NCBI GenBank assembly: GCA_938045955.1
Contig: CALIBK010000006.1
Location: 312 to 64,311 of the forward strand
Source of the DNA: an uncultured bacterium
GTDB lineage: Bacteria; Desulfobacterota; BSN033; UBA1163
Reading direction: 5' to 3'
Length of the DNA stretch: 64,000 nucleotides
The translations under genes were made by a program, and so were the position numbers. Every line of letters starts with the position of its first letter. The stretch's first letter is position 1. Below the pieces are notes generated by a model. The model did no database searches, had not been told where the DNA came from, and saw nothing but the letters and a program-made list of their open reading frames with translations. Positions 6,029 through 64,000 of this stretch are shown piece by piece.

Positions 6029-6048
6029 CGAATCTCTCCTTTTCGAGT

Positions 6049-21132: not shown

Positions 21133-21549
21133 TCAATCCCTCCCTTTCCTTTTTAGAAGGGTTAAAAGGTCAGATTCTTTCGAGCCTTTAAGATTAATTT
21201 TTTCCTTTTCCTCCCCTCCCTTCAATTCCTCTCTCTTCCACTCCTTTTCTCTTACCATTCGTTTCTCGATCCAGCGATCAAGGGCTTTCAGGTCAAATAG
21301 GACTCGATCCCCAATTTTTAGATAGGGGAGTTTTTTCTGGGATGCCATTCGGTAGACGGTCTCTATGGATAAACTTAAATATTGAGCCGCCTCCTTTGCA
21401 GTGATCAGCCTTCGAAGCTCTGGAATCTTTTTGATCCGTTCGTCCATCCGTTCGAAATATTTTTCTGCCAAAAGATCCGCTAACGTATTTAAGAATTCCT
21501 TCACGGGAGGACTCATTTCTTCTCTACCCATCTCCCTCTCCTCGATCAA
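21133..21549 (-). CDS. Excisionase-family (MerR-like HTH_17) DNA-binding protein with a charged C-terminal tail
   Basis: 138 aa. ITAKEAAQYLSLSIETVYRMASQKKLPYLKIGDRVLFDLKALDRWIE matches the Xis/HTH_17 helix-turn-helix pattern. 13 bp after the REC-LpxC stop. Confidence 0.65.
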   Translation of the reverse strand: MIEEREMGREEMSPPVKEFLNTLADLLAEKYFERMDERIKKIPELRRLITAKEAAQYLSLSIETVYRMASQKKLPYLKIGDRVLFDLKALDRWIEKRMVREKEWKREELKGGEEKEKINLKGSKESDLLTLLKRKGRD

Positions 21550-47801: not shown

Positions 47802-48245
47802 CTATAGACCAAGACTGGCGAGCGTATCTCTGATCTGATCAAATCCTTCTTCAACTTGTCGAACCACTTCAAGCCAGCGCTCCTTTGCAAAGATTTCAAT
47901 GAACCTCCCCTCACCGACCAGAACGACATCCTTCTTAAGATTGGCATAATCTCTCAAGGACTGGGGGATAAGAAGCCTTCCTAATTTATCGATGGTGCAG
48001 TCAATGGCACTTGAATAAAAATATCTTAAGAATGCACTGGTCTCTTTTCTTATGATTGAAAAAGAACCAATCTTCTGTTCTACCAGAAGATTCCATTCCT
48101 CGTAAGGAAAAGCGACCAGACACCCGTCAAAGTTCGTGATTACTAAGCGATCATCATATTTTTTGCTGAGGATTTCGCGGAATTTTGAAGGGATACTGAT
48201 ACGACCTTTTGAGTCTATGGTGTGTTCATATCGACCACGAAACAC
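47802..48245 (-). CDS. mraZ: Transcriptional regulator MraZ
   Basis: 147 aa with duplicated DXXXR-containing MraZ/SpoVT-AbrB halves. GTG start with SD GGGGGTGA. Confidence 0.9.
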   Translation of the reverse strand: MFRGRYEHTIDSKGRISIPSKFREILSKKYDDRLVITNFDGCLVAFPYEEWNLLVEQKIGSFSIIRKETSAFLRYFYSSAIDCTIDKLGRLLIPQSLRDYANLKKDVVLVGEGRFIEIFAKERWLEVVRQVEEGFDQIRDTLASLGL

Positions 48246-48267
48246 CTTTCACCCCCATTTGAGAACC

Positions 48268-48296
48268 ATACCACCTTTTCCCACATTTTCCCACTT
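48268..48296 (-). promoter_or_regulatory. Putative MraZ operator: three direct repeats GTGGGA-N4-GTGGGA-N4-GGTGGT at 10-bp periodicity in the mraZ leader
   Basis: Repeats read from the minus strand (aagTGGGaaaaTGTGGGaaaaGGTGGta). MraZ is known to bind tandem TGGGN repeats spaced one helical turn apart in its own promoter. Confidence 0.55.
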
Positions 48297-48304
48297 AGCC
48301 TTTA

Positions 48305-48333
48305 TGGATACACGGAAAATTTAAATTTGTCAA
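48305..48333 (-). promoter_or_regulatory. Candidate dcw (Pmra) promoter: consensus -35 TTGACA (48328-48333), 17-bp spacer, weak -10 TATCCA
   Basis: Hexamers read from the minus strand upstream of the MraZ repeats. Confidence 0.4.
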
Positions 48334-48596
48334 GTGAAATTTTATAGTTACTCCAATTTTTTTCGAATTCCGTTAAATCTACAATATATTTGAAAATCAG
48401 AGTTTATAATTACTATATTTAGTAAGTTTCTTCCACTTTTAAGGAAGAATTTTTTCAGAAGTAATCCATCCCTTATGAGGGGAGAATTGGCCTGATAAGG
48501 TTATGAGTGCGGTAATCTTAAATTGACCAAAAAGCTTTCAGGTTCAATCCGATTCGATGAGAAACCATTTTTTTACGGTGAATCCTTCCATATTCC

Positions 48597-48690
48597 ATTT
48601 TATCCTGAATCCCTTCGCGTTCTCAGGGTTTCGGAAATACCCCTTTCAGGCCAAAATGGCTCCTCTTTCTATAGATTGCAATCAGGGATT
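48597..48690 (+). repeat. Interspersed repeat family C, copy 2
   Basis: See 12318-12405. The same core CCTGAATCCCTTCGCGTTCTCAGGGTTTCGGAAATACCCCTTTCAGGCCAAAATGG plus a shared TTTCTATAGATTGCAAT tail. Confidence 0.7.
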
Positions 48691-48698
48691 TCTTTTCA

Positions 48699-50737
<2,039 letters not shown>

Positions 50738-50862
50738 AAAAAACCCTTTTAACCACTCCTGTTTAATAGAACTTCATTTTTTTCTTTTCTTCCTTTTGCA
50801 ATTTAATTATACTTCAGAGAAAACACCCTTGAAAAATCCATCCCTTGAATGGAGGAAGAGCT

Positions 50863-51516
50863 ATGGGAATATTTAGAAAAGGAAGAGAGCGGGATGTCAT
50901 CACCATGATCTTCAATCATCTTCAAAAGGTTCAGGAATGCCTGGAGCAGACCCAAAAGACGATGAACCATTATCTGGATGGCAAAATTGATGAGGCAAAA
51001 GCCGAGGCTCTCAAAACAGACCATCTCGAAACAGAGGCAGACCATATTCGGCGCTCCATTGTAGATATTCTTTTTCGGGGAGCCTTTCTTCCTATCTTTC
51101 GGGTAGAGATTCATAACTTTGTTGAAAAGGTAGATCAAATTGCAGACAATGCTGAGATCTGTTGTGATTTTCTCCTCGGCCAGCGGCCTTACGTTCCTGA
51201 GGAATTCAAAAAAAGATTTCTTAAAATCATGGAAGACACTCTTCCCATGTTTCATTGCCTTCGAGAGGCCACGGAAAATTTCTTCGGAAAAGGGGATCAC
51301 GAGTTGATTCGAAAGAGGGTTACGGAGATTGGGATTTCAGAATCCTCGATCGATGATGAGGAATGGAAACTCACCCGGGACATCTATACCTCTAATCTCT
51401 CCCTCGCCGAAAAGATCCATCTGAAACGATGCCTCGATACGATAACCAGTATGTCCGACCAAATCGAAGATACCTCGGACTGGTTAGAAGTCCTTTTGAT
51501 CAGCAGTAAAGTCTGA
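50863..51516 (+). CDS. DUF47 / PhoU-like phosphate transport regulator partner of PiT
   Basis: Helical TIGR00153-like protein directly upstream of the PiT gene. Start chosen at the ATG with SD GGAGGAAG; the ORF track starts 18 nt earlier. Confidence 0.7.
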   Translation: MGIFRKGRERDVITMIFNHLQKVQECLEQTQKTMNHYLDGKIDEAKAEALKTDHLETEADHIRRSIVDILFRGAFLPIFRVEIHNFVEKVDQIADNAEICCDFLLGQRPYVPEEFKKRFLKIMEDTLPMFHCLREATENFFGKGDHELIRKRVTEIGISESSIDDEEWKLTRDIYTSNLSLAEKIHLKRCLDTITSMSDQIEDTSDWLEVLLISSKV

Positions 51517-51550
51517 TCGGTCAGTTTATCTCTATCTGGGAGAACCATCG

Positions 51551-52477
51551 ATGTGGGAACTTTCGGCTGGAATCTTTATGGGTTGGAGTCTTGGAAGTAA
51601 CGATGCGGCAAACTTCTTCGGAACAGGGGTAGGTGCGAAAATCATCACCTATCGGAAAGCCACCCTTCTGATCGCGCTCTTCGTTGTGATAGGAGCCTTA
51701 TTAGAAGGAGAGAAGTGTTTCGCCACGGTGGGCGAAATCTCCAAACTCGATCTTAAAATGGCCTTCTTCACCACCCTCTCTGCCGCATCGATGGTCACCC
51801 TGTTTACTTATTTTGGGCTTCCTACCTCTACATCCCAGGCCATTGTTGGAGCGATCCTGGGTGGAGGACTTTATCTGGGAAAAGCGGATTTCACTAAACT
51901 TTATAAAATTCTTCTCTGTTGGATCTTGACTCCTGTTGGAGCATTGATCATCAGTTTTCTCCTTTACCATATATTAGGAAGGGCGGTCAACCGATACCTG
52001 AAACGCCCTCTCCTTCGAGATGCCATGATTAAAGGGGGACTGGTGATCTCTGGATGTTTTGGGGCTTATGCCCTTGGGTCAAATAATGTGGCCAATGTCA
52101 CTGGAGTTTATGTGACGACAGGGGCGCTCTCTCCTTTTTACGGGGCGTTGATAGGAAGTTTGAGTATCGCTTTGGGAGTCCTCACTTATAGCGGAAAGGT
52201 GATGGAAACCGTGGGAAGAAAGATTGTAGCCTTAGATCCCTATTCTGCTTTCATTGCTGGAGTGGGTTCAGCCCTTATCGTGTGGATCTTCACTCAGGTA
52301 GGCGTTCCAGTCTCTTCCTCCCAGGCGGTCGTTGGAGCCGTTACAGGGGTAGGACTCGTAAAAGGAATCCGCGCGGTGAGCCTCAAGAGTCTTGTTGAAA
52401 TTGTAGTGGGATGGGTATCAACCCCTCTAACCGGAGGAATCGTCTGTTATATTTTACTCGTCTTATTCTATCGCTAA
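51551..52477 (+). CDS. pit: Inorganic phosphate transporter, PiT family
   Basis: Duplicated PiT signature GSNDAAN / GSNNVAN with about 10 TM segments. Confidence 0.85.
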   Translation: MWELSAGIFMGWSLGSNDAANFFGTGVGAKIITYRKATLLIALFVVIGALLEGEKCFATVGEISKLDLKMAFFTTLSAASMVTLFTYFGLPTSTSQAIVGAILGGGLYLGKADFTKLYKILLCWILTPVGALIISFLLYHILGRAVNRYLKRPLLRDAMIKGGLVISGCFGAYALGSNNVANVTGVYVTTGALSPFYGALIGSLSIALGVLTYSGKVMETVGRKIVALDPYSAFIAGVGSALIVWIFTQVGVPVSSSQAVVGAVTGVGLVKGIRAVSLKSLVEIVVGWVSTPLTGGIVCYILLVLFYR

Positions 52478-52499
52478 TCTCAAAGAGAGGTGGTCTCAA

Positions 52500-53432
52500 A
52501 TGAAAAGAGTGGTGATCGATTGTGATGTGGGAGTGGATGACGCAATGGCTTTAATCCTTGCCTATGGTTCACAGGAACTGGAAATAAAGGCAATCACGGG
52601 AGTCAACGGAAATGTCCCCCTAAACCAGGTTTTCGAAAATATCCAGAAGATCCTCTCTCTGATTCGTCCCTTCTATCCTCCTCTGATCGCAAAAGGAGCG
52701 GATAAACCCTTAACAGGAGAAACCCTTTATGCCCATTCCGTTCACGGGATAGATGGATTGGGAGGGGCTGATATTCCAATTAATGAAACAGAGAGATTCT
52801 GGGAAACTTCTCCCTTGAAAGCATCTGAACTTCTTCCAACGATGGCCCGTCAATTCCCCAAAGAACTTATGCTCATTGCAACAGGTCCTCTGACCAATCT
52901 AGCCTTGGGGATTCAAAGAGATTTTGAAGGGATGAAAAATTTTAAAGAGATCATCATTATGGGGGGAGCCATTCGAACGAGGGGAAATACGACACCCTAT
53001 GCTGAATTCAATATTTATTCCGATCCCTTGGCCGCCCGGATCGTTTTGGAAAGCGGGATTCCCATCACTCTGGTTCCCCTCGATGTCACCCATCAGGTCT
53101 TTCTTACTTCCGATCTCATGGAACAAAAAATTAAACCCCTTCAAAATCTCCTTTCTAATTTTATTATTCAGGCTACAGGCTATGAGTCTTTATCCCGAAA
53201 ATTTAGAAATCGAGAGACCATCTTCCTCCACGATCCTCTGGCGGTTGGAGTAGCGATCGATCCTACCTTAGTTAGGACAGAAAACCTCTCGCTGGAAGTA
53301 GAGCTTCAGAGGGGAGAATATTATGGGAGGATAAAAGAAAGAGCTGCTGATGCAAAAATCAATGTTTGCCTTGAAGTAGACAGAAAGAGGTTCTTAGAAC
53401 TTTTTATCTCAAGCCTGAGGAAAAGGACATGA
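52500..53432 (+). CDS. Inosine-uridine-preferring nucleoside hydrolase family protein
   Basis: N-terminal Ca-binding DXDXXXDD motif (IDCDVGVDDAMAL) and IU-NH fold length. Confidence 0.85.
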   Translation: MKRVVIDCDVGVDDAMALILAYGSQELEIKAITGVNGNVPLNQVFENIQKILSLIRPFYPPLIAKGADKPLTGETLYAHSVHGIDGLGGADIPINETERFWETSPLKASELLPTMARQFPKELMLIATGPLTNLALGIQRDFEGMKNFKEIIIMGGAIRTRGNTTPYAEFNIYSDPLAARIVLESGIPITLVPLDVTHQVFLTSDLMEQKIKPLQNLLSNFIIQATGYESLSRKFRNRETIFLHDPLAVGVAIDPTLVRTENLSLEVELQRGEYYGRIKERAADAKINVCLEVDRKRFLELFISSLRKRT

Positions 53433-53436
53433 GATT

Positions 53437-54357
53437 ATGGGCCATCGGATTCTTGTGCTTGGGAGTTCGAATATTGATCTGATTATGAGTCTTCCCCGGT
53501 TTCACCATCCCGGGGAGACAGTTCAAGCTCACCATTTCCATACGGCGTTCGGAGGGAAAGGGGCAAATCAGGCAGTTGCCGTAAAAAGATTGGGGGGCGA
53601 GGTGATCTTTATAACGAAATTGGGAAACGATTTTTATGGAAAATCTTACCACCGTTATCTCGCCAAACAGGGAATTCCTCAACAATTCTTTCTGGTAGAT
53701 AAAAAAACATCCACTGGGATGGCCTTTATTGAGCTGGATCCGAAGGGAGAAAATCGAATTGCGGTCTTTGGGGGAGCAAATCATCATCTCTTTGTGAATG
53801 ATTTAAAGAGGCTCTCCCCTTTATGGAAGAAAGCCAGACTGTTTGTCTCACAGCTGGAAATTCCAATGAAAACAGTAAAGTGGGGCTTAATAATGGCAAA
53901 AAGATATGGAGCTTTAACGATTCTTAATCCCTCCCCTCCCTTTCCCCTTTCTCCTGAATGTCTCACTTTAGTGGATTATCTGGTGCCCAACGAATTAGAA
54001 GCCCAGATTCTTTCCGGAATAACGTTTCGAAAGGAGAATGACCTTCCAAAGATTGCTAAAAGATTTCTCTCCATGGGTACAAAAAATGTGATTATTACCC
54101 TGGGATCCCAAGGTCTCTTTTTTAAAAATCGTGATGAAGAACTCAGAATGGAAGCATTTAAGGTGAAAGTAGTGGATACGACCGCTGCAGGAGATGCCTT
54201 TATGGGAGGTCTTGTCTATGGCCTTTCAGAAGAGAAATCGATTGCTGAAGCACTGCGAATAGCCAATGCAGCAGGAGCTCTTGCAACAACCCGATTGGGC
54301 GCTCAACCCTCCCTTCCCTCCAAAAGAGAACTTTTTTGCTTTTTACGCCATCATTGA
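53437..54357 (+). CDS. rbsK: Ribokinase / PfkB-family sugar kinase
   Basis: GG dipeptide lid (AFGGKGANQA), anion hole DTTAAGDAF, ribokinase-like length. Confidence 0.8.
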   Translation: MGHRILVLGSSNIDLIMSLPRFHHPGETVQAHHFHTAFGGKGANQAVAVKRLGGEVIFITKLGNDFYGKSYHRYLAKQGIPQQFFLVDKKTSTGMAFIELDPKGENRIAVFGGANHHLFVNDLKRLSPLWKKARLFVSQLEIPMKTVKWGLIMAKRYGALTILNPSPPFPLSPECLTLVDYLVPNELEAQILSGITFRKENDLPKIAKRFLSMGTKNVIITLGSQGLFFKNRDEELRMEAFKVKVVDTTAAGDAFMGGLVYGLSEEKSIAEALRIANAAGALATTRLGAQPSLPSKRELFCFLRHH

Positions 54358-54444
54358 TTAATATAATTTTTCAAGAGGAGGAGAGGTTTACTTAAAAAAA
54401 GAGGAATTCTTCTCACATTTTCTGGGGGATTGAAAGGAAGTCAA

Positions 54445-55716
54445 ATGAAAACCTATCCGATTCCCTGCGGGAAAAAAGACCTTTTCCTATCCCTTCCTGA
54501 TCATGTTGCGGTTCAATATGTGGAATCCCCTAAAATGGTGTCTATTTCGAATGTGAAAGAAGCAATTGAACAGGCTTTACAGAATCCTATCGGATCTTCT
54601 CGATTAAGGGATCGCGTAAAGGCCGGACAAAAAGTGGCCTTGATTGTGACCGACATTACGAGGAAACTTCCCGAGGAGGTGATCCTTCCCCTCTTGATTA
54701 AAGAACTTGAGGCAGGTGGAGTCAAAAAGAAAGATATCACCGCTATTGTAGCCACAGGAACCCATCGACCCAATACTTTTGAGGAGCTAAAAGAAAAATT
54801 TGGCGAGGTCGTTAACGAAATTCCCTTTATCAATCATGATGCCTATAATCAAAAAGAATTGATTCGTTTGGGAATGACGGAAGGAGGAATCCCCCTGATT
54901 TTCAATCGGAGGGTCGTGGAGGCAGATATTCGGATCTCAACGGGAGTCATTGAGACTCACCTCTTTGCTGGATACAGTGGAGGGGTAAAAAGCATTGCCG
55001 TGGGGATAGCAGGGGAGGAGACGATCGCAGCAACCCATAACTACTCCATGATGGAGGAAACCCGATTGGGAGTGGTGGAGGGGAATCGTTTCAGGAGATT
55101 TCTTACAGAGGCGACATGTGCTCTGGGGCTTCACTTCATTATCAATGTCGTTCAAACGGGGAAAAAAGAGATTGTAAAAGTGGTGGCGGGAGATCCTATC
55201 GAGGCTTTTCAGGAGGGGGTGAAGGTAGCCCGAAAACTCTATGAAGTGGAGATTCAAGAACCAGGAGAAATTGTGGTAAGCGGAGTCAGTTATCCTAAGA
55301 GTCGGGATCTCTATCAGGCGACCCGGGCAGCGAATGTTGTCGTGTTTGGGCCGAAACCCGTGGTCACGGAGGGAGGGGTAATTCTCATTCCTGCACCCTG
55401 TGAGGATGGTTGTGGGCATCCTGGCTACTGCGAGATCATGAAGAAGGCCCAGGATGCAGATGATATCATCCGCATCTCTCGAGAGGAGGGGTTTGCCCCG
55501 GGAGAACAGAAGGCCTTTATCCTGGCTCGAATTCTTAAGCGTGCAAGAATAGTGATGACGGATTGTCTTCTCCCTGAAGAAACATTAAAAGAATTGTATC
55601 TCGATTCTGCTCCCACCCTTCAAGAAGCCTTAAATCGTGAATTAGAGAAGAATCCAGGAGCAAGGGTCATTCTAATTCCGGATGGGCTATTGACCCTGCC
55701 CATTCTTAAAAATTAG
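54445..55716 (+). CDS. larA: LarA-family nickel-pincer-nucleotide-dependent 2-hydroxyacid racemase/epimerase homologue (DUF2088)
   Basis: About 424 aa with the LarA N-terminal domain, including conserved His/Lys positions (TGTHRP, HLFAGYSGG). Start at the ATG with SD GAAAGGAAG. Confidence 0.7.
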   Translation: MKTYPIPCGKKDLFLSLPDHVAVQYVESPKMVSISNVKEAIEQALQNPIGSSRLRDRVKAGQKVALIVTDITRKLPEEVILPLLIKELEAGGVKKKDITAIVATGTHRPNTFEELKEKFGEVVNEIPFINHDAYNQKELIRLGMTEGGIPLIFNRRVVEADIRISTGVIETHLFAGYSGGVKSIAVGIAGEETIAATHNYSMMEETRLGVVEGNRFRRFLTEATCALGLHFIINVVQTGKKEIVKVVAGDPIEAFQEGVKVARKLYEVEIQEPGEIVVSGVSYPKSRDLYQATRAANVVVFGPKPVVTEGGVILIPAPCEDGCGHPGYCEIMKKAQDADDIIRISREEGFAPGEQKAFILARILKRARIVMTDCLLPEETLKELYLDSAPTLQEALNRELEKNPGARVILIPDGLLTLPILKN

Positions 55717-55732
55717 GGTTCATTTGGAGGTC

Positions 55733-56641
55733 ATGATGAACTTTCAACCCAGAGGTATTATTCCGGCCATGGTGACTCCGGTCACGAAAGAGGGAAAGAT
55801 TAACGAGATGGCCCTCAGAAAGCTCACCCGATATCTCATTGAAGGAGGGGTTCACGGCCTTTTCCCTGTGGGCAGTCAGGGAGAATTTTACGCGCTTACT
55901 TTTGAAGAAAAGAAAAAGATCGTGGAGATCGTCATCGATGAGACCAACGGTCGGGTACCGGTCTATGTGGGAACAGGGGCTGTGACGACTCGAGAAGCCA
56001 TTGCCCTGACTCAAATGGCTGAATCGGCTGGAGCCAGTGCAGTGTCTGTCATTACCCCGTATTTTATCCGACCGAATGATGAGGAATTAATGGAATATTA
56101 CACCTCGATTGCAAATTCAACTCGCCTTCCTGTCCTTCTCTATAATAATCCCCCTCGAACAGGAGTCAATCTCTCTGCTGACTTTGTGGTTCGTGCCTCC
56201 CGGATAGAAAATATTGTAGGGATTAAAGATTCTTCCGGTGATCTTACCCTTACGGCTGAATATATTCGAAGAACGGGAGAAAAGTTTTCTGTCCTTGCGG
56301 GACGAGATACTCTGATCTATGGAACCCTTTGCTATGGTGGAAAAGGGGCCATTGCCGCGACAGCCAATGTAGCTCCCAAATTGATTGTCGAGATTTACGA
56401 AGCCTTTATGGCAGGAGATCATCAGAAGGCTCTCTCAGCCCAATTTCGATTGGCTCCTCTTCGATTGGCCTTCGATCTGGGAACATTCCCTGTGGTGATC
56501 AAAGAGGCTCTAAATCTTATCGGAATAGAAGCAGGGATTGGAATTCCACCTGTGGGAGGAATTAGCCTGAAAGCTAAAGAAGAACTAAAAGAAATTTTGA
56601 AAAATTTGGGACTTTTAAAGAAAAATAAGTATGGTGAGTGA
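55733..56641 (+). CDS. DapA/NAL-family class I aldolase (dihydrodipicolinate synthase family; candidate 2-keto-3-deoxy-acid aldolase)
   Basis: TIM-barrel Schiff-base lysine region GIKDSSGD, GSQGEF motif, Tyr motifs. SD GGAGG. Confidence 0.75.
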   Translation: MMNFQPRGIIPAMVTPVTKEGKINEMALRKLTRYLIEGGVHGLFPVGSQGEFYALTFEEKKKIVEIVIDETNGRVPVYVGTGAVTTREAIALTQMAESAGASAVSVITPYFIRPNDEELMEYYTSIANSTRLPVLLYNNPPRTGVNLSADFVVRASRIENIVGIKDSSGDLTLTAEYIRRTGEKFSVLAGRDTLIYGTLCYGGKGAIAATANVAPKLIVEIYEAFMAGDHQKALSAQFRLAPLRLAFDLGTFPVVIKEALNLIGIEAGIGIPPVGGISLKAKEELKEILKNLGLLKKNKYGE

Positions 56642-56684
56642 TTCAATTTTGCTGTGAAATGGATTAACCACTTATAATTGTCAT

Positions 56685-57644
56685 TCATTGCTTAGGTTGA
56701 TTCACTGGATGAAGGGGTAATTTCCCTTCCAAAACACGAATCACATCCTCGGCCACCAAACTCATTCTTCTCAAGGCTTCTTCTGTATGGGCTGCCATAT
56801 GAGGAGTCCCGATAAAGTTATCCAATTCGAATAGAGGATTATCCTTCGGAGTCGGTTCGATCTCAAACACATCTGCCCCTGCCCCTGCAATCATTCCTTC
56901 TTTTAAGACTTTATATAAGGCTTTCTCATCCCAGATCGGGCCTCTCGCCAGATTAATAATATAAGCCGTAGGCTTCATTTTCATAAATTCTTCTTCTTTA
57001 ATGAGGTGCCTGGTTTCGGGAAGCATAGGGAGATTGATGGAGATAAAGTCAGACCTTCTCAAGAGCTCCTCCAGTCCCACTTTTTCTGCATGAATCTCTG
57101 CTTCCATCTCCTCGTATCGAATGGTATCGTAGTACAGGACTTTCATATCAAACCCTTTATAACCGGTTCGTCCAATAGCTTTTCCAATCCGGCCAAACCC
57201 TAAGATCCCTAATGTCTTTCCGTGAAGTTCATTCCCGATATATTCATACCTTGCCTGCCATCGCCCTTCCCGCAAGGCGATGTCCGCTTTTTTCAATTTT
57301 TTTGATAACATCAGGGTGAGTCCAAAGAAATGTTCTGCCACCGAAAGATCATTCGCCTCGGGGGTATTGACGACCCATATCCCCTTCTCTGTAGCTGCCT
57401 CGAGATCAATATTTTCTACCCCTACCCCATGTCTTCCGATGACTTTCAGTTTCGGCGCATGGTCGATGATCCTCCGAGTCACTTTTCCATTCGCTCGGAT
57501 AATAATCGCATCCACGCTTTTCACCTCATTGATCAATGAATCCTCTTCAATTGAGCTGGCGAAAACGATCTCCCCCTTCTCTCTCAGAAGGGACTTCCCT
57601 TCTTCATGAATCTCCTCATAGAGTAAAAATCTAAATTTTTTCAT
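56685..57644 (-). CDS. D-isomer-specific 2-hydroxyacid dehydrogenase (glycerate / hydroxypyruvate / phosphoglycerate dehydrogenase type)
   Basis: NAD Rossmann motif GILGFGRIGKAIG. Catalytic Arg/Glu/His triad region. Confidence 0.85.
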   Translation of the reverse strand: MKKFRFLLYEEIHEEGKSLLREKGEIVFASSIEEDSLINEVKSVDAIIIRANGKVTRRIIDHAPKLKVIGRHGVGVENIDLEAATEKGIWVVNTPEANDLSVAEHFFGLTLMLSKKLKKADIALREGRWQARYEYIGNELHGKTLGILGFGRIGKAIGRTGYKGFDMKVLYYDTIRYEEMEAEIHAEKVGLEELLRRSDFISINLPMLPETRHLIKEEEFMKMKPTAYIINLARGPIWDEKALYKVLKEGMIAGAGADVFEIEPTPKDNPLFELDNFIGTPHMAAHTEEALRRMSLVAEDVIRVLEGKLPLHPVNQPKQ

Positions 57645-57708
57645 ATTCCTCTCCTAAAAATATTTTTTTCTTTCTAACTTATATAGAATCCATTATTCTT
57701 GGCTGGGA

Positions 57709-57805
57709 AACAGGCCTGAATCCATCCGCGTTCTAAGGGTTTAGAAATACCCCCTTAGGCCAAAATGAATCCACTCCTTCAGGAGGATTTCTATAATTAC
57801 AATTT
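57709..57805 (+). repeat. Interspersed repeat family C, copy 3
   Basis: See 12318-12405. Ends in TTTCTATAATTACAAT, containing a TATAAT hexamer. Confidence 0.7.
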
Positions 57806-58038
57806 TTGTATATATTTTACTAAATCTTTTTTCAATTATTCTCAACATAACTTATCCACATAAGATCTTCATTAAGTCCTCTAAGATAGGGGGTTGATGA
57901 TATGTGGAAGATTTGCCTCTTTTTTGAGGTGTTCAAATGACTTAAGCTTTTTAAGAGTCGGATTGGCATGTTTTCGTTGGTATCCACGGTCGATACAGAA
58001 TTCATTGAGGATGAAGGTTTTATCTTTTCGTATCTGGG

Positions 58039-58160
58039 GAAATGAATGCTTATTTTTCATTCCCTCGCAGTCGGGAATCCAGTCTTTTCAAAATGTTTCT
58101 GGATTCCTGCTTCCGCAGGAATGACGGCAACTATAACTTTTTTAATTTCGTTTGTATTAA
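58039..58160 (+). repeat. Interspersed repeat family A, copy 2
   Basis: About 88% identical to 12427-12550 with the same two hairpins. Its 3' end TTGTAT serves as the -35 for the downstream gene. Confidence 0.8.
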
Positions 58161-58181
58161 TTCCCTGGCAGGTGCTATAAT
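58152..58181 (+). promoter_or_regulatory. Promoter of the nucleotidyltransferase gene: TTGTAT-N18-TATAAT, with an extended TGcTATAAT. About 6-nt leader (near-leaderless mRNA).
   Basis: Hexamers and spacing read directly. The -35 comes from the repeat terminus. Confidence 0.5.
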
Positions 58182-58194
58182 TTTTAAGACCAAA

Positions 58195-58767
58195 ATGAAT
58201 TCTCAAAGGATATTCGAAACTATAAAAAAAACGGAGTCTCCTCTCAAAAGGCAGCTTCTCATGGTGGGGTTAATCACTAAACTTCTCGAAGAGAAGGGAA
58301 AGAAAGCTCCCATCATTATTGGCGGATGTGCTTTATCTTATTATTCAAGAGAAGTTTACTTTACTTCAGATATAGATTTGGCTTATTCGGATAGAGAGGC
58401 ACTCGATGAAATTATGAGAGAAATCGGTTTCCAAAAGAGGGGTCGATATTGGATCCAGGAAGAATTGAAAATGGCTGTCGAGGCGCCAGCTTCTCAACTG
58501 GGTGAGGAACAGGCTCCTGTAGAGATTGTCGAAGTTGGGGAAGGGCTTCAATGTATCCTCATTGGGATAGAAGATCTCATCATCGATCGTATGAATGCCT
58601 GTAAGCATTGGAAGTCAGAGATCGATTGTGAAATGGTAGAACTCCTGCTAAACCATTATTATAATGAAATTGATTGGCCCTATCTTGAAGGGAAAGCACT
58701 CAAACCAGAAAATGATATTTTCCAGGAACTTCGAGAAATAAAGAATAAGATTCAGGAGAGAAGATGA
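58195..58767 (+). CDS. Pol-beta-superfamily nucleotidyltransferase (AbiEii / DUF1814-like minimal NTase core plus a helical C-terminal domain)
   Basis: hGG-x13-DhD motif IIIGGCALSYYSREVYFTSDIDLAY. Start moved to MNSQRIF because the first 51 codons of ORF 58042 are repeat-encoded (FSFPRSRESS...FRRNDG). Confidence 0.6.
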   Translation: MNSQRIFETIKKTESPLKRQLLMVGLITKLLEEKGKKAPIIIGGCALSYYSREVYFTSDIDLAYSDREALDEIMREIGFQKRGRYWIQEELKMAVEAPASQLGEEQAPVEIVEVGEGLQCILIGIEDLIIDRMNACKHWKSEIDCEMVELLLNHYYNEIDWPYLEGKALKPENDIFQELREIKNKIQERR

Positions 58768-58982
58768 GGGTAAAGAAATACGAGGAAAGGTCACCGGTAG
58801 ATTTTCTTCTTCTCAGGGAGAAACTCGGACTGAAGAGATACCGAAAGACGGCCAAAAGAGATGAAGAGAAAAGGGAGATTCTCTTGGAACTCGGCTTAAA
58901 GAAAATAAAAGAGAAAGAAAAAGGCGACTTTATTCCACTTGGCTACAGAAGAAGAAAAGTTAAAATTTTATCTGAAGAATAA
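58764..58982 (+). CDS. Small basic / charged protein (72 aa) translationally coupled (ATGA overlap) to the nucleotidyltransferase
   Basis: ORF overlaps the upstream stop by 4 nt. Lys/Arg/Glu-rich with no recognisable domain. Confidence 0.4.
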   Translation: MRVKKYEERSPVDFLLLREKLGLKRYRKTAKRDEEKREILLELGLKKIKEKEKGDFIPLGYRRRKVKILSEE

Positions 58983-59130
58983 ACCCTTTCAAAAATCTCT
59001 CGAATCTACGTTTTGAATGATCTTTCTGACTGATTGAATCATAATCTTTCCCTTAACTTAATGTTCGAAAGAGGAATTGCCTTATTGACCAAACCCCCTA
59101 AATTTGGTATTCATAAAAATAATAAATCTT

Positions 59131-61026
59131 ATGCCGTTTGGATATAATGGAAAGATATTAAGGGTTGATCTGGACAGGGGATCCATAAGCATTGAGGAAC
59201 CGGACGAAAACGTATATTGCCGCTATCTTGGAGGAGGAACGTTTGCCCTCTATTATCTATTGAAGGAATTCAAGCCGAAGTCTGATCCTCTCGGGCCAGA
59301 AAATATCCTCGTATTTATAGGCTCCGTCATCTCCGGGACACCTGCCGTGGGGTTAAGCCGTTTCTCTGCTGCAGCGAAATCCCCTTTGACTAATGCCTTC
59401 GGGGAAGCAGAGGCAGGCGGGTGGTGGATCCCCGAATTAAAGTTTGCAGGGTACGATGCCGTTATCATTAAGGGAAGGGCAAACCACCCGGTCTATCTCT
59501 GGATTCATGATGGTGAGGCCGAGATTAAGGATGCCCGCCATCTCTGGGGAAAGTTTACGAAAGAAACCCAGGAAGAGATTAGAAAGGAACTTCGAGATGA
59601 GCACATCCGAATCGCCTCGATCGGACCTGCTGGGGAGAAGTTAGTAAGGGTTGCCTGTATTCTGAACGAGCTCAAACATGCCAATGGCAGAACGGGTCTG
59701 GGCGCTGTGATGGGATCGAAGAACCTAAAGGCCATTGCAGTGAGAGGGAACAAGCGAATGGAGGTAGCCGATGAAGAAGCGGTAAGGAGAATAACGAAAT
59801 GGCTGAGAGATACTTATGAAGAACCTTACTTTAGCATAGGGAATCTCGGGACAGCCCGTGTTACGGTAATGCTGAGTGAGCAGGGTATTCTTCCTACCTT
59901 TAATTTTAGACAGGGTTCATTCGAAGGGGCTGAGGCCATCAGTGGCGAGACCATGTCCAAAACGATTCTGGTTCGCAGAGGAACATGCTATGGGTGCTTC
60001 ATCAGGTGCAAAAGGGAGGTCCGTGTTACGGAACCTTATCTGGTGGACCCAATCTATGGAGGACCTGAATATGAGACGGTGGCCGCCTTTGGCTCTATGT
60101 GTGGCATAGACAACTTAAAAGCCATCTCCTGGGCGAATCAACTCTGTAATGCCTATGGCCTTGATACTATTTCAACGGGAGGCCTCATCTCTTTTGCCAT
60201 GGAGTGTTACGAGAACGATATCCTCAAGAGCACCGATACGGGCGGACTCGACCTTCGCTTCGGCAATGTGGAAGCTATGATCAAAATGGTCGAAATGATC
60301 GGAAAACGTGAAGGCTTAGGGGATCTTCTCGCCGATGGAATGTCCTTGGCAGCAAGGAAACTTGGTAAAGGGGCTGAAGGCTTTGCAATGCATGTCAAAG
60401 GAATGCCTCTTCCCTTCCATGAACCAAGAGGAAAGGTTGGAGTGGGGATCGGTTACGCTGTATCTCCAACTGGGCCTGATCATATGGAATTTCCACACGA
60501 TCCTTTTTGGGCGACCGATGCCGGCATCTCTCTTCTCAGACCTTTGGGAATTCTTGAGCCTGTCGATGTTTTTGACCTTGGACCAAAGAAGGTGAGGCTC
60601 TTCGTCTATCTTCAGCAATACTGGGATCTCCTTAACTCCCTGGGAATCTGTATGTTTACAGCAAAACCCTTTGGACCCCATACCTTCAATGAAATCGTTG
60701 ATTATGTGAAGGCAGTCACTGGATGGGAGACAAGCCTCTTTGATCTTTTAAAAGTTGGAGAGAGACACGCAAATATGGCGAGAATCTTTAATCTTCGGGA
60801 AGGCCTTACGTCAAAAGATGACATCCTTCCAGAGCGATTATTTCAACCGATGGAGGGAGGTACACTAAAAGGAAAGAAGATAGACCAGGAAGAGTTCTTG
60901 AAGGCCATAAAAACGTATTATCAAATGATGGGCTGGGATCCTGAATCCGGTGTTCCTAAAAAAGAAAAATTGGCCGAATTGGATCTCGATTGGCTCATCG
61001 ATTATGCCCCTTCCCTTTTTTCTTAA
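59131..61026 (+). CDS. aor: Tungsten-containing aldehyde:ferredoxin oxidoreductase (AOR family)
   Basis: N-terminus MPFGYNGKILRVDL, the AOR N-domain, and 4Fe-4S/pterin ligand region (E...H, CxxC...C: RGTCYGCFIRC). ATG at 59131 preferred over the TTG at 59104. Confidence 0.85.
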   Translation: MPFGYNGKILRVDLDRGSISIEEPDENVYCRYLGGGTFALYYLLKEFKPKSDPLGPENILVFIGSVISGTPAVGLSRFSAAAKSPLTNAFGEAEAGGWWIPELKFAGYDAVIIKGRANHPVYLWIHDGEAEIKDARHLWGKFTKETQEEIRKELRDEHIRIASIGPAGEKLVRVACILNELKHANGRTGLGAVMGSKNLKAIAVRGNKRMEVADEEAVRRITKWLRDTYEEPYFSIGNLGTARVTVMLSEQGILPTFNFRQGSFEGAEAISGETMSKTILVRRGTCYGCFIRCKREVRVTEPYLVDPIYGGPEYETVAAFGSMCGIDNLKAISWANQLCNAYGLDTISTGGLISFAMECYENDILKSTDTGGLDLRFGNVEAMIKMVEMIGKREGLGDLLADGMSLAARKLGKGAEGFAMHVKGMPLPFHEPRGKVGVGIGYAVSPTGPDHMEFPHDPFWATDAGISLLRPLGILEPVDVFDLGPKKVRLFVYLQQYWDLLNSLGICMFTAKPFGPHTFNEIVDYVKAVTGWETSLFDLLKVGERHANMARIFNLREGLTSKDDILPERLFQPMEGGTLKGKKIDQEEFLKAIKTYYQMMGWDPESGVPKKEKLAELDLDWLIDYAPSLFS

Positions 61027-61206
61027 AATTCACTTTACTGAACCTGTCAGCGCTCTAACCGAAAAAGGGATCGAATCTCCGAAAATATTCATTCCGAAAT
61101 AGAATTCATGAAGAATTAAAGAAAAGAGCCTTATCCCTAAAATGAAGTAATTTCATAATTTCCAAAGAAAAAAATAGTCCAAAAAACAAAAAATCCCCCG
61201 GCCTAA

Positions 61207-62373
61207 TTAATCTCAGGAGATGGTTATGCCCTTGCCTATCGAGCAGGAGCTGAATTGGTGAATATGGAATTTATCCAGATTGGTCCTGCCTCTCTTAAGA
61301 CCAGACTGAATTGCTCCGGAAGCCTGATGAGGGCTCTGCCCAGGGTGATTAATGAAAAGGGGGAAGAGTTTTTAAAAAATTACTTCCCCAAGGCGACTTC
61401 TCCCTCCGAAATCAGCAATCTTATTTTTGAGAAAGGCTCAAGCTGGCCAGTCTCTATAGAGAAGAGAACCCATATCCTTGATGTGGCCATGTTTAAAGAA
61501 ATATATCGAGGACACCGGATTTATCTCGATTACCGGTTTAATCCAGAAGGATTTCGATTTCAAGATCTGGATCCAAAATGGCAGGAAAGGTACCAAAGAG
61601 AAATTAAAAATCCTGCTCCTTCGGAATGGAGAGAAAGGTCCCCATTCGATCGTCTTTTAGAGATTAATCCTGAGTCGATCGAATGGCTAAAAGAATACGG
61701 AATTGACCTTACGAAGGGAGACCTTATAGAGATCGCCCCCTGTATTTAACACTTCCAGGGAGGGGTCAAGATTAGAAAAAGGGGGGAGACATCTCTAAAG
61801 GGACTCTTTGCTGCGGGAGAATGCGCTGGGGGTCAGCATGGAGCTAATCGTCCCGGAGGAAATGCCCTGCTGGATGGTCAGGTTTTCGGAAGAATTGCAG
61901 GTCGCGAAGCCGCCCTTGAGGCAATGAGAATCGAACCTCCAGGAATTCCCCAAAAACAGATCCAAACCTATATGAAGGAGCTTAAAAATCTAAACGAAGG
62001 AGAAAGAGCGTCGGAAATAAGAAAGGAGATTCAATCCCTTACCTCTCAGTTTGCCAGTATCGTTCGAACTGAGAAGGGATTAAAAGAGGGATTGATAATC
62101 CTTAAATTCTTAAAGAAAAAAGGAATTGCTCAGGATGAAAAAGGCCTTATCTTTGCACTGGAGACAAAAAACTTGATGGAAGTCGCTGAGATGATCTTCC
62201 GGGCCTGTCTTTTAAGAAAAGAATCTCGAGGCCCTCATCTCTTTTTTGAACGTTTTGATGATTTAAAGCCTGTCTCATCAAAAGACCCGGAGTGGAGAAA
62301 ATATATTGTCCTTCGAAAGGAAGGCGAAAAGATGATCCTTATGAAAAGAGCCCCCGTTCCATTGTCTTTTTGA
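61207..62373 (+). pseudogene. Remnant of an FrdA/SdhA/NadB/KstD-type FAD flavoprotein. The N-terminal FAD-binding domain is absent and there is an in-frame TAA at 61747-61749.
   Basis: Frame-1 translation gives ...GDGYALAYRAGAELVNMEFIQ... then TAA, then ...GLFAAGECAGGQHGANRPGGNALLDGQVFGRIAG.... No upstream coding capacity between AOR (ends 61026) and 61207. Confidence 0.6.
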
Positions 62374-62399
62374 TAGGAGGAAATTCGGTGGAGTTCAAA

Positions 62400-63596
62400 A
62401 TGATTCGCTCTCCCATCCCCATAGGCAAAAAGGTTGCCTCTAATCGAATTGTTAATCAACCCATGGAATGTAACGATGGGGACTCCTGTGGAAATCCAAC
62501 AGAACTTACGTTTAAACGCTATCGGAAACTCGCTGAGGGAGGGGCAGGAATCATCTTTATCGAATCCATGACCTTTACTTATAAAAGTCGGGCAAGGAAG
62601 AATCAATTAAAGATTTCTGAAGACACAGCAAAGGGGCTGGAAAAGCTGGTGAGAGAGATGAGAGAGATCAATCCTCATCCTCTCATTTTGTTTCAAATCA
62701 CCCATTCAGGGAGGTACAGTGGATCAGATTTCTCAAACGTGGTTTCTGTTTATCCAACAGGAGATCCCCAAGTCCATCTACTTACCGAAAAAGAGATCGA
62801 AGAGATAAGCCAGGGGTTTGTCAAAGCCACCCTGATCGCCAAACAGGTAGGGGCTGATGGCATCGATTTCAAACATTGTCATGGATACCTGTGTGGGGAG
62901 ATCCTTAGACCTGCCAACCGAAGGCCTGATCGTTTCGGAGGGAGTTTTGAAAATAGAACAAGGTTTTTCCGCGAGACAATGGAACAGATTAAGAAAGCGA
63001 TCGGAAGGGACTCCTTTCTTCTCGGCTTGAGGTTTTCAATCTACGAGGGGATTCCAGGAGGATTTGGGACTCCGGGTCCAGAAGAGGTGGAAGAGGATCT
63101 CTCCGAGCCTCTCCGTTTTGCAAAGATGGTTGAGGAAACAGGAATGGATTTTATCAATGTCTCCGCTGGAATTCCTGCGATCACCCCTGAAATCGTAAGA
63201 CCTACAAAAAAATATCCTGAAGGGATTTATCGACATTTTGGATGGGCTAAAGCAATAAAGCAGATGGTCCGAATTCCAGTGATTGGCTCAGGGTACAGCT
63301 ATCTTCGGGACGGAAAGAACGACCTCAAAGAATCCGATCCATCGAAGAAGAGTTTTCTTTACTGGGCAGAAAAGAATCTTAAAGAGGGTAAAGTGGATCT
63401 GGTGGGAATTGGAAGACAGTCCCTTGCAGATCCCCTCTTTGCCAGAAAGATTCTTTCAGGGAATCTCGATCAGATCAATTATTGCACCGCCTGTGGAGGA
63501 TGTAGTGTGCTGTTAGGTTCTCAGAAAGAGGTGGGGTGTGCGGTCTATGACGAATATTACAAAGAAGTGCTGAGAAAAATTAAAAATGAAATCTGA
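62400..63596 (+). CDS. Old Yellow Enzyme-family NAD(P)H:flavin oxidoreductase (ene-reductase / 2,4-dienoyl-CoA reductase-like)
   Basis: TIM-barrel FMN motifs (HCHGYLCGEIL..., GRDSFLLGLRFS, VDLVGIGRQSLADP) and a C-terminal Cys cluster CTACGGCS. Start at the ATG 62400 after SD GGAGGAAA; the earlier part of ORF 62292 overlaps the flavoprotein remnant. Confidence 0.75.
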   Translation: MIRSPIPIGKKVASNRIVNQPMECNDGDSCGNPTELTFKRYRKLAEGGAGIIFIESMTFTYKSRARKNQLKISEDTAKGLEKLVREMREINPHPLILFQITHSGRYSGSDFSNVVSVYPTGDPQVHLLTEKEIEEISQGFVKATLIAKQVGADGIDFKHCHGYLCGEILRPANRRPDRFGGSFENRTRFFRETMEQIKKAIGRDSFLLGLRFSIYEGIPGGFGTPGPEEVEEDLSEPLRFAKMVEETGMDFINVSAGIPAITPEIVRPTKKYPEGIYRHFGWAKAIKQMVRIPVIGSGYSYLRDGKNDLKESDPSKKSFLYWAEKNLKEGKVDLVGIGRQSLADPLFARKILSGNLDQINYCTACGGCSVLLGSQKEVGCAVYDEYYKEVLRKIKNEI

Positions 63597-63631
63597 TAAA
63601 GAAATAAAAAATATTGAAAGGAGGAGAGATA

Positions 63632-64000
63632 ATGTACGATATTGTGACCTTCGGTGAGGCCATGGTAAGGCTCTCGCCTCCCCACTTTCAAAGATTGGAG
63701 CAGGCAAGGACACTGGATCTTCATGTGGGAGGAGCGGAACTGAATGTGGCGGTGGGTGTGACACGATTTGGAATGAAGAGCGCCTGGGTCTCCAAACTTC
63801 CAAAGAATTCATTGGGATGGCTGATCCGGGATCGGGCTCAGGAATTTGGAGTGGATTGCTCCCATATAGTCTGGTCAGATCAAGGAAGAGCAGGAATCTA
63901 TTTTGTGGAATTTGGGGCTTCCCCCCGGGCCTCCAGTGTCCTTTACGATCGAAGTCATTCAGCCATCAGCATGGTTCAGCCCGGGGAGATTGATTGGGCA
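63632..64000 (+). CDS. kdgK: PfkB-family sugar kinase, 2-dehydro-3-deoxygluconokinase (KdgK)-like. 5' portion only; runs off the window.
   Basis: N-terminus MYDIVTFGEAMVRLSPP and GGAELNVAVG are typical KdgK/PfkB motifs. SD AAGGAGGAGAGA. Confidence 0.7.
   Translation, partial: MYDIVTFGEAMVRLSPPHFQRLEQARTLDLHVGGAELNVAVGVTRFGMKSAWVSKLPKNSLGWLIRDRAQEFGVDCSHIVWSDQGRAGIYFVEFGASPRASSVLYDRSHSAISMVQPGEIDWA

Follow-up and report, generated by a model that had tools for sequence, protein, structure and literature searches.

Within a 64,000-nucleotide stretch of DNA from an uncultured bacterium of the Desulfobacterota (assembly GCA_938045955.1, contig CALIBK010000006.1, positions 312 to 64,311; hereafter the window), five consecutive genes at positions 52500 to 57644 are built around a homologue of the nickel-pincer enzyme LarA (LarAH). 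The model we propose, and in which we place a middling confidence, is that LarAH, the DapA-like aldolase encoded next to it and a D-2-hydroxyacid dehydrogenase (HADH) belong to a module conserved across phyla which would degrade an imported hydroxy-dicarboxylate rather than a sugar acid. The full module consists of a tripartite tricarboxylate transporter (TTT; TctABC) or, in its place, a tripartite ATP-independent periplasmic (TRAP) transporter, LarAH, the DapA-like class I aldolase, a class II aldolase of the HpcH/HpaI family (HpcH), HADH and a regulator of the GntR-FCD or IclR type, and the window carries a trimmed copy of it. Gene families, conserved residues and a synteny that extends to translational coupling define this module. 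The five genes are the following:

52500 to 53432, plus strand: IU-type ribonucleoside hydrolase (IUNH; PF01156, 264 bits)
53437 to 54357, plus strand: ribokinase of the PfkB family (RbsK; TIGR02152, 327.3 bits against a cutoff of 299.65)
54445 to 55716, plus strand: LarA homologue of 423 aa (LarAH; Lar_N (PF09861) 216.6 bits and LarA_C (PF21113) 58.5 bits)
55733 to 56641, plus strand: DapA-like protein of the DHDPS family (PF00701, 270 bits)
56685 to 57644, minus strand, convergent: D-2-hydroxyacid dehydrogenase (HADH; 2-Hacid_dh and 2-Hacid_dh_C domains)

The families were assigned by Pfam and NCBIfam profiles, with the curated equivalog cutoffs of NCBIfam applied, and they confirm the five consecutive open reading frames (ORFs), at these coordinates and with these families, that a preliminary sequence-only reading of the window had described. 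LarAH starts at the ATG at 54445 and not at the TTG at 54430, its 423-aa product being identical to the database protein P0001, and the DapA-like gene starts at 55733. The metagenomic contig belongs to a Syntrophaceae/Syntrophorhabdus-like lineage of the Thermodesulfobacteriota. The functional unity that the same reading had attributed to the whole island holds, by recurrent synteny, for LarAH, the Schiff-base aldolase and HADH; it is not supported for the IUNH-RbsK pair, nor for the aldehyde:ferredoxin oxidoreductase (AOR) and the PfkB-family fragment found further downstream.

The recurrent synteny was established on 85 loci with LarAH orthologues at 74-100% identity, recovered by a contig scan and an alignment-based metagenome scan, in which ORFs were called per locus, neighbours were clustered and linkage counts were normalised to the loci with sufficient flank. 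In 42 of 65 loci the DapA-like gene follows LarAH, mostly without an intervening gene, and its product (81-99% identity within the clade) is more conserved than LarAH itself; HpcH comes directly after it in 29 of 35 loci, and HADH is found 1-8.5 kb downstream of LarAH, in convergent orientation, in 18 of 50. Genes for TctC, TctA and TctB are present in 29, 21 and 12 loci respectively. In 21 loci TctC immediately precedes LarAH, and in 17 of these the stop and start codons are separated by a spacer of 1 nt (checked in the sequence of L038), a spacing that represents translational coupling of the carboxylate-binding protein with the racemase. Other loci encode a TRAP system (DctPQM), and the regulators are GntR-FCD or IclR. 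The consensus order can be written as (IUNH, RbsK), (nitroreductase), (TctBAC), LarAH, DapA-like, HpcH and, at some distance, HADH in the reverse and IclR in the forward orientation, followed by DctPQM and a short-chain dehydrogenase/reductase. The parts of the module are shuffled between genomes. Since dozens of diverged loci repeat the arrangement, the clustering is far beyond chance.

The same association is found in another phylum. Cultured Moorellaceae, which are Firmicutes, possess LarAH orthologues with 61-62% identity and a specificity signature identical to that of the window LarAH. In Neomoorella humiferrea (complete genome CP136419.1, with LarAH near 504624-505910), HpcH, a DHDPS-like protein, a 2-Hacid_dh protein, LarAH, TctB, TctA and TctC are encoded in this order by a co-directional operon whose core, from HpcH to TctC, has gaps of only 5-36 bp; TctC is followed by a URO-D-like gene, an AP_endonuc_2 gene (hydroxypyruvate-isomerase fold), a NAD_binding_2 gene (tartronate-semialdehyde-reductase fold) and a GntR-FCD gene. 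The identities to the window or clade proteins are 62.6% for LarAH, 65% for the DapA-like protein, 51% for TctC, 44% for HADH and 42% for HpcH. Locus L095 contains DHDPS, 2-Hacid_dh, LarAH and Tct genes; L093 contains 2-Hacid_dh, LarAH and TctBAC, with HpcH further along and an aldehyde dehydrogenase but no AOR; and L092, whose LarAH is a cousin with the GHK motif described below, shows the order GntR, 2-Hacid_dh, DHDPS, LarAH, DctPQM and HpcH, with an oxaloacetate decarboxylase Na+ pump and phosphoenolpyruvate carboxykinase (PEPCK) directly downstream. HADH is directly beside LarAH and co-directional with it in L090, L092, L093 and L095, and accessory genes with the Hyi-like (AP_endonuc_2) and GarR-like (NAD_binding_2) folds are present in L090 and L093. 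Neither IUNH, nor RbsK, nor a sugar-acid dehydratase was found in the contexts of N. humiferrea, L092, L093 and L095. A search of the literature retrieved no paper linking LarA homologues with TctC, HpcH or DapA-like genes, and the context table of Desguin et al. (2020) is devoid of COG0329 (DapA) and COG3836 (HpcH), so that no LarAH group is linked there to either.

Other gene sets were seen beside LarAH in some of the loci. In L020, L023, L029, L031, L045 and L052, a divergent GntR-FCD gene and a corrinoid-protein/URO-D-like methyltransferase set replaces the DapA-like and HpcH genes, with a small ThiS-like ORF immediately following LarAH in four of these loci (L020, L023, L045, L052), and in other orthologous loci they give way to a set of genes for LacI, an ABC transporter and an aldo-keto reductase. 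A URO-D-family gene lies within or adjoins the tct genes that neighbour LarAH in L003, L005, L016, L030, L090 (14471-15481) and L095 (13433-14626), loci that represent both Thermodesulfobacteriota and Moorellaceae; it may code for an unrecognised accessory enzyme of the pathway.

LarAH has its closest solved structures in 2YJG, 6D6Z, 9EID and 5HUQ (E-values 1e-62 to 1e-53), and its residues were mapped onto the LarA1 numbering (5HUQ/8EZF). LarA1 residues D72, R75, H108, H174, K184 and H200 correspond to D70, R73, H107, H172, K182 and H198 of LarAH, all of them conserved: His107 and His172 are the catalytic pair, Lys182 is the cofactor tether and His198 the nickel ligand. These six residues, which bind the nickel-pincer nucleotide (NPN) or take part in catalysis, are invariant in 24 orthologues, and His107 and His172 are present in all the relatives sampled; the tethering lysine and the histidine pair, on which the sequence-only reading had made its assignment depend, are both kept. 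One position departs from the family. Lys298 of LarA1, carried by all characterised LarA-family references and known to bind the α-carboxylate of the substrate (PMC11851776), is replaced by Arg294 in LarAH, and this arginine does not vary within the clade and is found almost throughout the surrounding superclade. As judged from the sequence the replacement is conservative, and carboxylate binding is probably still retained. At the positions of LarA1 F175, F176, W358 and T359, LarAH has L, F, Q and K, and its Gly353, Gln355 and Lys356 (D356, W358 and T359 in LarA1) form a G-QK motif. Malate racemases have H or Q followed by K at W358/T359 (the 'GHK' motif), this lysine being proposed to bind the second carboxylate (PMC11770544; PMC7583248), and the gluconate epimerases of groups 18-20 have E, V, A and H at the four positions (PMC11770544). 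The sequence-only reading had proposed that LarAH epimerises an aldonic or 2-hydroxy acid; an aldonate is supported neither by these specificity residues nor by the hexonate-epimerase model NF052594, which gives 45.8 bits against a cutoff of 500.

The best curated model for LarAH is that of the LarAH6 malate racemase (NF052593, 383 bits against a cutoff of 500), the LarAH5 malate racemase model (NF052595) giving 331 bits against 462; LarAH lies below every NCBIfam LarAH cutoff, and none of ten sampled relatives reaches any of them. The orthologue group, characterised by the signature L[F/L] / YQTR / FPGQKAI, is recovered in 100 of 100 neighbour-joining (NJ) bootstraps, and in a search of representative sequences it grades into relatives of 47-35% identity, nearly all with Arg298. 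The comparison with characterised enzymes that the sequence-only reading had advised was made with a distance (NJ) tree in which the reference sequences were cut at about 400 aa: LarAH falls outside Mar1, Mar2 and Group 4, in an Arg298 superclade (154 of 200 bootstraps) that includes both Group 25 sequences and leaves out LarA (Lp, Tt), Mar1, Mar2, Groups 3, 4, 6 and 8 and the HGR reference. Among the sequences of the Desguin 2020 dataset, a substring search likewise finds YQQK in all malate racemase groups (4, 5 and 6) and the arginine variant only in Group 25.

LarAH shares with the malate racemases Mar1/LarAH5, Mar2/LarAH6 (PDB 6D6Z) and LarAH62 the Lar_N and LarA_C fold, all the NPN-binding and catalytic residues and the G-[H/Q]-K sequence of the C-terminal helix, and the group of Mar1 is also associated with TctC/TctA. 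It differs from them by an identity of only about 33%, by YQTR instead of YQQK, by the Leu-Phe that follows the second catalytic histidine and by its company, these racemases being without reported association with DapA-like or HpcH aldolases. Group 25 (Desguin et al. 2020; haloarchaea, Roseiflexus) has YQ[TS]R and belongs to the same superclade but has Gln-Tyr after His174, GQR where LarAH has GQK, and about 35-38% identity; its recorded context, a helicase only, is uninformative. LarAH is therefore best described as a predicted NPN-dependent 2-hydroxyacid racemase or epimerase of an uncharacterised Arg298 clade. More distant GHK cousins, with 45-49% identity and Arg298 (L096/L097, 4518-12981; L098, 6812-16982), reside in operons with SAF and GD_AH (UxaA/GarD-type) dehydratase, IlvD/Edd dehydratase, 2-Hacid_dh and 2-oxoacid:ferredoxin oxidoreductase genes, to which Ldh_2 and AOR genes are added in L096/L097. 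Their acid-sugar-like context resembles the route earlier proposed for the window, and the specificity has therefore diverged within the wider LarAH lineage.

No larB, larC or larE was found in the annotated neighbourhoods of the relatives; in the 2020 context table many LarAH groups have no larBCE beside them, and a LarC is reported for Moorella thermoacetica (PMC13510736). On the minus strand of the window, positions 3802-6477 code for CbiO (3802-4668), CbiQ (4661-5287), CbiM (5297-6028) and a Fur-family regulator (6049-6477); this CbiM/CbiQ/CbiO system, of the energy-coupling factor type for cobalt/nickel uptake, is a possible candidate for the nickel supply of the NPN cofactor.

The partner most tightly linked to LarAH is named 4-hydroxy-tetrahydrodipicolinate synthase by every annotation pipeline. 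It has the TIM barrel of DapA and of the DHDPS/NAL family (YagE/YjhH, HOGA1, KdgD, TIGR02313 'HpaI-NOT-DapA'), and its clade keeps Tyr133, Arg138, Lys161 (the Schiff-base lysine), Gly186 and Ile203, the first three being invariant in 21 members; the numbering is that of the E. coli DapA sequence, with self-consistent landmarks. Unlike DapA, the clade shows three invariant replacements, T45Q, Y107F and D187R, of which Y107F breaks the Thr44-Tyr107-Tyr133 relay, while T44 is mostly Ser and T45Q changes the GTTGE motif into a GSQGEF that resembles the GSNGEF of HOGA1. The NPIPVK segment is invariantly TFPVVIK and the lysine allosteric residues are absent. These hallmark changes are also found in the Moorellaceae orthologue (65% identity). 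The best PDB matches are true DHDPS enzymes (198 bits), closely followed by the YagE-type aldolases (172 bits); the archaeal 2-keto-3-deoxygluconate (KDG) aldolase model gives 142 bits, and the GarL models (132-136 against about 400 bits) and KdgD models (143-150 against 278-374 bits) are both far under cutoff. The gene is in a catabolic operon, and neither dapB nor any other lysine-pathway gene occurs in the annotated contexts or among the annotated recurrent neighbour clusters. Because of this constant catabolic context and the lack of lysine-pathway neighbours, the 'DapA' is probably, on sequence grounds, a DapA-derived Schiff-base (class I) pyruvate aldolase or dehydratase and not the DapA of the lysine pathway. 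In DapA, Arg138 binds the carboxylate of the aldehyde substrate. The DapA-like partner of the GHK cousin has Lys at position 138, and the basic residue kept at this place suggests, from DapA enzymology, that the distal part of the substrate carries a carboxylate.

HADH finds its best solved relatives in 1WWK (280 bits) and in the Pyrococcus glyoxylate reductases (233-245 bits), and its sequence appears related to the short phosphoglycerate dehydrogenases and to the glyoxylate/hydroxypyruvate reductases. In some relatives its gene shares an operon with those for a ferredoxin, a 2-oxoacid:ferredoxin oxidoreductase and an HpaB/AbfD-like protein.

The model combines these elements into one route. 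A 2-hydroxy di- (or tri-)carboxylic acid would be imported by the TTT (TctABC) or TRAP system, and the NPN-dependent LarAH would invert its C2 by proton-coupled hydride transfer, thereby making both stereoisomers usable. HADH would oxidise the D-2-hydroxy acid to the 2-oxo acid, and the DapA-like and metal-dependent HpcH aldolases would split a 4-hydroxy-2-oxo-dicarboxylate into pyruvate and a carboxylated aldehyde, for which glyoxylate and tartronate semialdehyde are the candidates. The candidate substrates would include 3-deoxy-aldarates such as 2,4-dihydroxyglutarate (via 4-hydroxy-2-oxoglutarate, HOG), 2-keto-3-deoxy-aldarates and tartrate- or malate-like acids, and to any one of them we give less confidence than to the general model. 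We infer the acidic class of the substrate from four independent lines, namely the G-QK motif of LarAH, Arg138 of the DapA-like protein, the TTT/TRAP transporters and the GntR-FCD/IclR regulators. The order of the steps would follow from the absence of a dehydratase beside the orthologues, which leaves HADH as the only core enzyme able to create the 2-oxo group, and the presence of HADH together with 2-oxoacid:ferredoxin oxidoreductase in relatives was also counted towards this order. Glyoxylate or tartronate semialdehyde is suggested by the Hyi-like and GarR-like genes and by the kinship of HADH with the glyoxylate/hydroxypyruvate reductases. The interconversion of HOG and dihydroxyglutarate, and a DHDPS-family HOG aldolase, have a precedent in mammals (PMC11261398). 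The nearest catabolic parallel is the glucarate/galactarate route (GarL, KdgD, GarR, Hyi), with which the module shares the pairing of an HpcH-family with a DHDPS-family protein, an acidic substrate (predicted for the module), GarR-like or Hyi-like genes at some of the loci and a dehydrogenase akin to the hydroxypyruvate/glyoxylate reductases; it differs in having no GudD/GarD-type dehydratase with the GQK orthologues, an NPN racemase and HADH being there instead. A more precise proposal, which we advance only tentatively and with less assurance than the model itself, is that of an undescribed anaerobic pathway in which an Arg298-lineage epimerase, a D-specific dehydrogenase and paired class I and class II aldolases would yield pyruvate and glyoxylate or tartronate semialdehyde.

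Several observations weigh against the degradation of a hydroxy-dicarboxylate by this module. As for the genes, tblastn with the cluster partners detected neither HpcH, nor Tct or TRAP genes, nor a second DHDPS gene in the 64 kb of the window; larB, larC and larE are absent from the Pfam-checked ORFs of the window and from the remaining translations, read by eye; and about a third of the orthologous loci carry other downstream genes, for example the LacI-ABC-AKR or the corrinoid methyltransferase set. As for the enzymes, the members of the Arg298 lineage are without assigned activity, Group 25 being listed as 'Unknown function', and the LarAH specificity code is empirical. The DapA-like protein exceeds the cutoff of the dapA equivalog TIGR00674 (245.1 against 206.15 bits), and to our knowledge Y107F has not been reported to abolish DapA activity. 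HADH could act downstream instead, as a glyoxylate/hydroxypyruvate reductase of the type of its closest solved relatives. The need for two aldolases is without explanation, and malate itself needs no aldolase at all. Finally, the persistence of RbsK beside LarAH through rearrangements hints at a functional link that has no place in the model.

The surroundings of the three core genes are of a different nature. The neighbouring features of the window that have to be considered are:

50863 to 51516, plus strand: PhoU-like regulator (Pfam on the source contig)
51551 to 52477, plus strand: PHO4/Pit phosphate transporter (Pit; Pfam on the source contig), 22 bp upstream of IUNH
59131 to 61026, plus strand: aldehyde:ferredoxin oxidoreductase (AOR; AFOR_N and AFOR_C domains)
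63632 onward, cut by the end of the window: PfkB-family fragment, 123 aa inside the window (generic PfkB, 54.8 bits)

IUNH and RbsK, adjacent and co-directional with a gap of 4 bp, resemble the Rih/UriH plus RbsK nucleoside pairs, from which they differ in being joined on either side, to an upstream PhoU-Pit unit and to the downstream LarAH module, and in an IUNH that is below the RihA, RihC and UriH equivalog cutoffs. RbsK, with 299 against 341 bits, is also below the cutoff of PRK11142; an identity as KdgK (44-82 bits, against 327 bits for TIGR02152) or as the ribose-1-phosphate kinase of the pentose-bisphosphate pathway (87 against 500 bits) was rejected. RbsK is upstream of LarAH in 27 of 68 loci and IUNH in 15 of 44, IUNH being directly upstream of RbsK in 13 of 14; RbsK keeps this position through rearrangements such as RbsK-NitroR-LarAH (NitroR, nitroreductase) and RbsK-Tct-LarAH. 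The pair is linked in about 35-40% of the loci from Thermodesulfobacteriota, and the contexts of the Firmicute orthologues lack it altogether. The best interpretation of the pair is a separate module leading from ribonucleosides to ribose-5-phosphate, a lineage-specific addition outside the cross-phylum core. The order Pit-IUNH-RbsK recurs in 5 loci, the gaps from Pit to the DapA-like gene of the window are of 4-87 bp without evident terminator, and IUNH-RbsK may be co-transcribed with PhoU-Pit upstream and LarAH downstream. Rfam gave no match at gathering thresholds in the region 48000-64000. A promoter/terminator scan (17 against 12.6±3.5 and 18 against 10.8±3.5 in shuffles) was indistinguishable from shuffled sequence, so that no operon boundaries can be defined from it. 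L008, L010, L013, L042, L047, L059 and L062 share a conserved RbsK-LarAH spacer of about 78 nt with the element TTGATCAA...AGAATTCAATAT, which may be an operator or an internal promoter; the spacer of the window itself is of 87 nt (54358-54444) and does not contain this element, and a conservation restricted to a subset of close relatives is therefore uninformative for the window.

The sequence-only reading had likened the AOR to the glyceraldehyde-3-phosphate:ferredoxin oxidoreductases (GAPOR), an identity that had to be abandoned: the GAPOR model NF040818 reaches 32.7 bits where 1300 are required, and with the generic AOR model the score is 232 bits against 868. AOR-family genes occur within 10 kb of LarAH in 8 other loci, in three of which they are convergent on HpcH, but their positions are variable and their identity to the AOR of the window is 33-41% (33-45% over all the paralogues compared), so that the latter is not a conserved partner of the module. 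The PfkB fragment at 63632, called KdgK-like by the sequence-only reading, is too short inside the window to be named a KdgK; it has no tblastn similarity to RbsK at E <= 1e-4 and is not conserved near LarAH.

Four other explanations of the cluster have to be weighed against the degradation of a hydroxy-dicarboxylate. The one that comes nearest to it, unlikely in our opinion but to be taken seriously, is the use of tartrate or malate isomers: LarAH would interconvert D-, L- and meso-tartrate or D- and L-malate, HADH would form oxaloglycolate or oxaloacetate, and HpcH would act mainly as a β-keto-acid decarboxylase giving tartronate semialdehyde/hydroxypyruvate or pyruvate, with subsequent reduction to glycerate. 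The malate-racemase-like motif of LarAH speaks for it, as do the epimerisation of tartrate by the malate racemases LarAH62 and LarAH27 (PMC11770544), the proposal of tartrate for Mar1 by the authors of the 2020 study together with the TctC/TctA linkage of its group, the oxaloacetate decarboxylase pump and PEPCK genes of L092 and the Hyi-like and GarR-like genes of L090 and L093. It leaves, however, no role for the DapA-like protein, the partner with the tightest linkage and the highest conservation, and LarAH is below both malate racemase cutoffs, outside the clades of Mar1, Mar2 and Group 4, and distinguished from all characterised malate racemases by its arginine at 298. We consider as improbable the island of the (semi)phosphorylative Entner-Doudoroff type that the sequence-only reading had put forward, in which LarAH epimerises an aldonate, the DapA-like protein is a KDG-type aldolase, AOR oxidises glyceraldehyde, HADH handles glycerate and the PfkB kinases phosphorylate ribose and KDG. 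DHDPS-family KDG aldolases do exist, and the score of the archaeal KDG-aldolase model, the AOR-family genes of the 8 loci, the UxaA- and IlvD-type acid-sugar dehydratases and AOR adjoining the GHK cousins, and the RbsK kept beside LarAH are in keeping with such a route. Yet the signature of LarAH is malate-racemase-like and not that of GntE, the transporters are TTT/TRAP carboxylate systems and no sugar-acid dehydratase stands beside any GQK orthologue or was found in the window, whether by Pfam on selected ORFs, by eye in the other translations or by tblastn with the cluster partners. Moreover, the kinase is a ribokinase by equivalog cutoff, AOR is not a GAPOR and has paralogues rather than orthologues at the other loci, the PfkB fragment lacks conservation near LarAH and IUNH-RbsK is missing from the Firmicute orthologues.

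A partly coincidental adjacency, in which a genuine lysine-pathway DapA and a stand-alone LarAH would be kept together by descent and not by a shared function, appears very improbable to us. The TIGR00674 score, the best PDB matches, the retention of K161, Y133 and R138 and the unanimity of the pipelines on the name DapA would agree with it, but in another phylum the DapA-like gene, LarAH, HpcH, HADH and Tct constitute an operon of a different gene order, which argues against simple descent. The invariant T45Q, Y107F and D187R, the loss of NPIPVK, the absence of dapB and lysine-pathway genes from the annotated contexts and a YagE-type score close to that of DHDPS point in the same direction. 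Least probable of all, and hardly to be expected, is a single integrated pathway requiring IUNH and RbsK, by which a ribosylated or nucleoside-like hydroxy acid would be cleaved, its ribose released and phosphorylated and the acid processed by LarAH and the aldolase. The recurrence of the order IUNH-RbsK-LarAH with a spacer kept at about 78 nt, the position of RbsK upstream of LarAH even when NitroR or Tct is inserted between them and the short gaps of the window from Pit to the DapA-like gene would fit such a pathway; against it, IUNH and RbsK are absent from all the Firmicute orthologue contexts and from most Thermodesulfobacteriota loci, a nucleoside hydrolase and a ribokinase make up a self-sufficient nucleoside-utilisation pair, as in the uri operon of Corynebacterium, and we know of no ribosylated hydroxy acid of this kind.

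The window and the related loci contain further features that may be recorded here. Between HADH and AOR, at 58042-58982 on the plus strand, an ORF of 241 aa coding for a DUF6036 nucleotidyltransferase-like protein overlaps an ORF of 72 aa, and pairs of the Polbeta/HepT type are found immediately upstream of LarAH in L003 and L005; these genes have the appearance of small mobile elements of the toxin-antitoxin kind, inserted around the module. Two ORF fragments of 164 and 149 aa at 61255-62373 (plus strand), between AOR and a gene of the old yellow enzyme (OYE) family, contain only a detectable Succ_DH_flav_C domain, the FAD-binding N-terminal domain being missing, and are probably a truncated or frameshifted flavoprotein pseudogene. 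At 21563-22882 on the minus strand a protein of 439 aa fuses a response-regulator receiver to LpxC, an unusual architecture, and an HTH_17 protein follows at 21133-21549; the same pair is directly upstream of LarAH in L031, L050, L052 and L064, and the window genome has therefore undergone a synteny break of about 32 kb. The segment 12728-18081 includes a gene of the major facilitator superfamily, an NTP_transferase (14011-14736) and an AmiA-like amidase (17293-18081), the last two Pfam-checked, together with a phosphotransferase-like gene (14740-15786) and a glycosyltransferase-like gene judged by eye only; this set is reminiscent of cell-wall sugar recycling of the AmgK/MurU type.

In conclusion, the orthologue group of LarAH represents an uncharacterised clade of the LarA family in an undescribed operon context. 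The substrates of most of the LarA superfamily are unassigned, and the Arg298 lineage formed by Group 25 and its relatives is without any assigned activity; the cross-phylum context described here restricts the candidate substrates to imported, acidic 2-hydroxy acids whose degradation would end in a pyruvate-aldolase cleavage. If the proposed pathway is true, LarAH would be the first LarA-family enzyme tied to a retro-aldol cleavage, the nickel-pincer cofactor would acquire a new physiological role and the widespread annotation 'DapA' would have to be reassigned. Hundreds of proteins entered in databases as 4-hydroxy-tetrahydrodipicolinate synthase probably act as catabolic aldolases, hence a systematic mis-annotation. 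The existence of cultured hosts with complete genomes, Neomoorella humiferrea and Moorella spp., makes the question of the substrate directly testable. As the other hosts are abundant Thermodesulfobacteriota of sediments, this pathway may matter for the turnover of organic acids in anoxic sediments.

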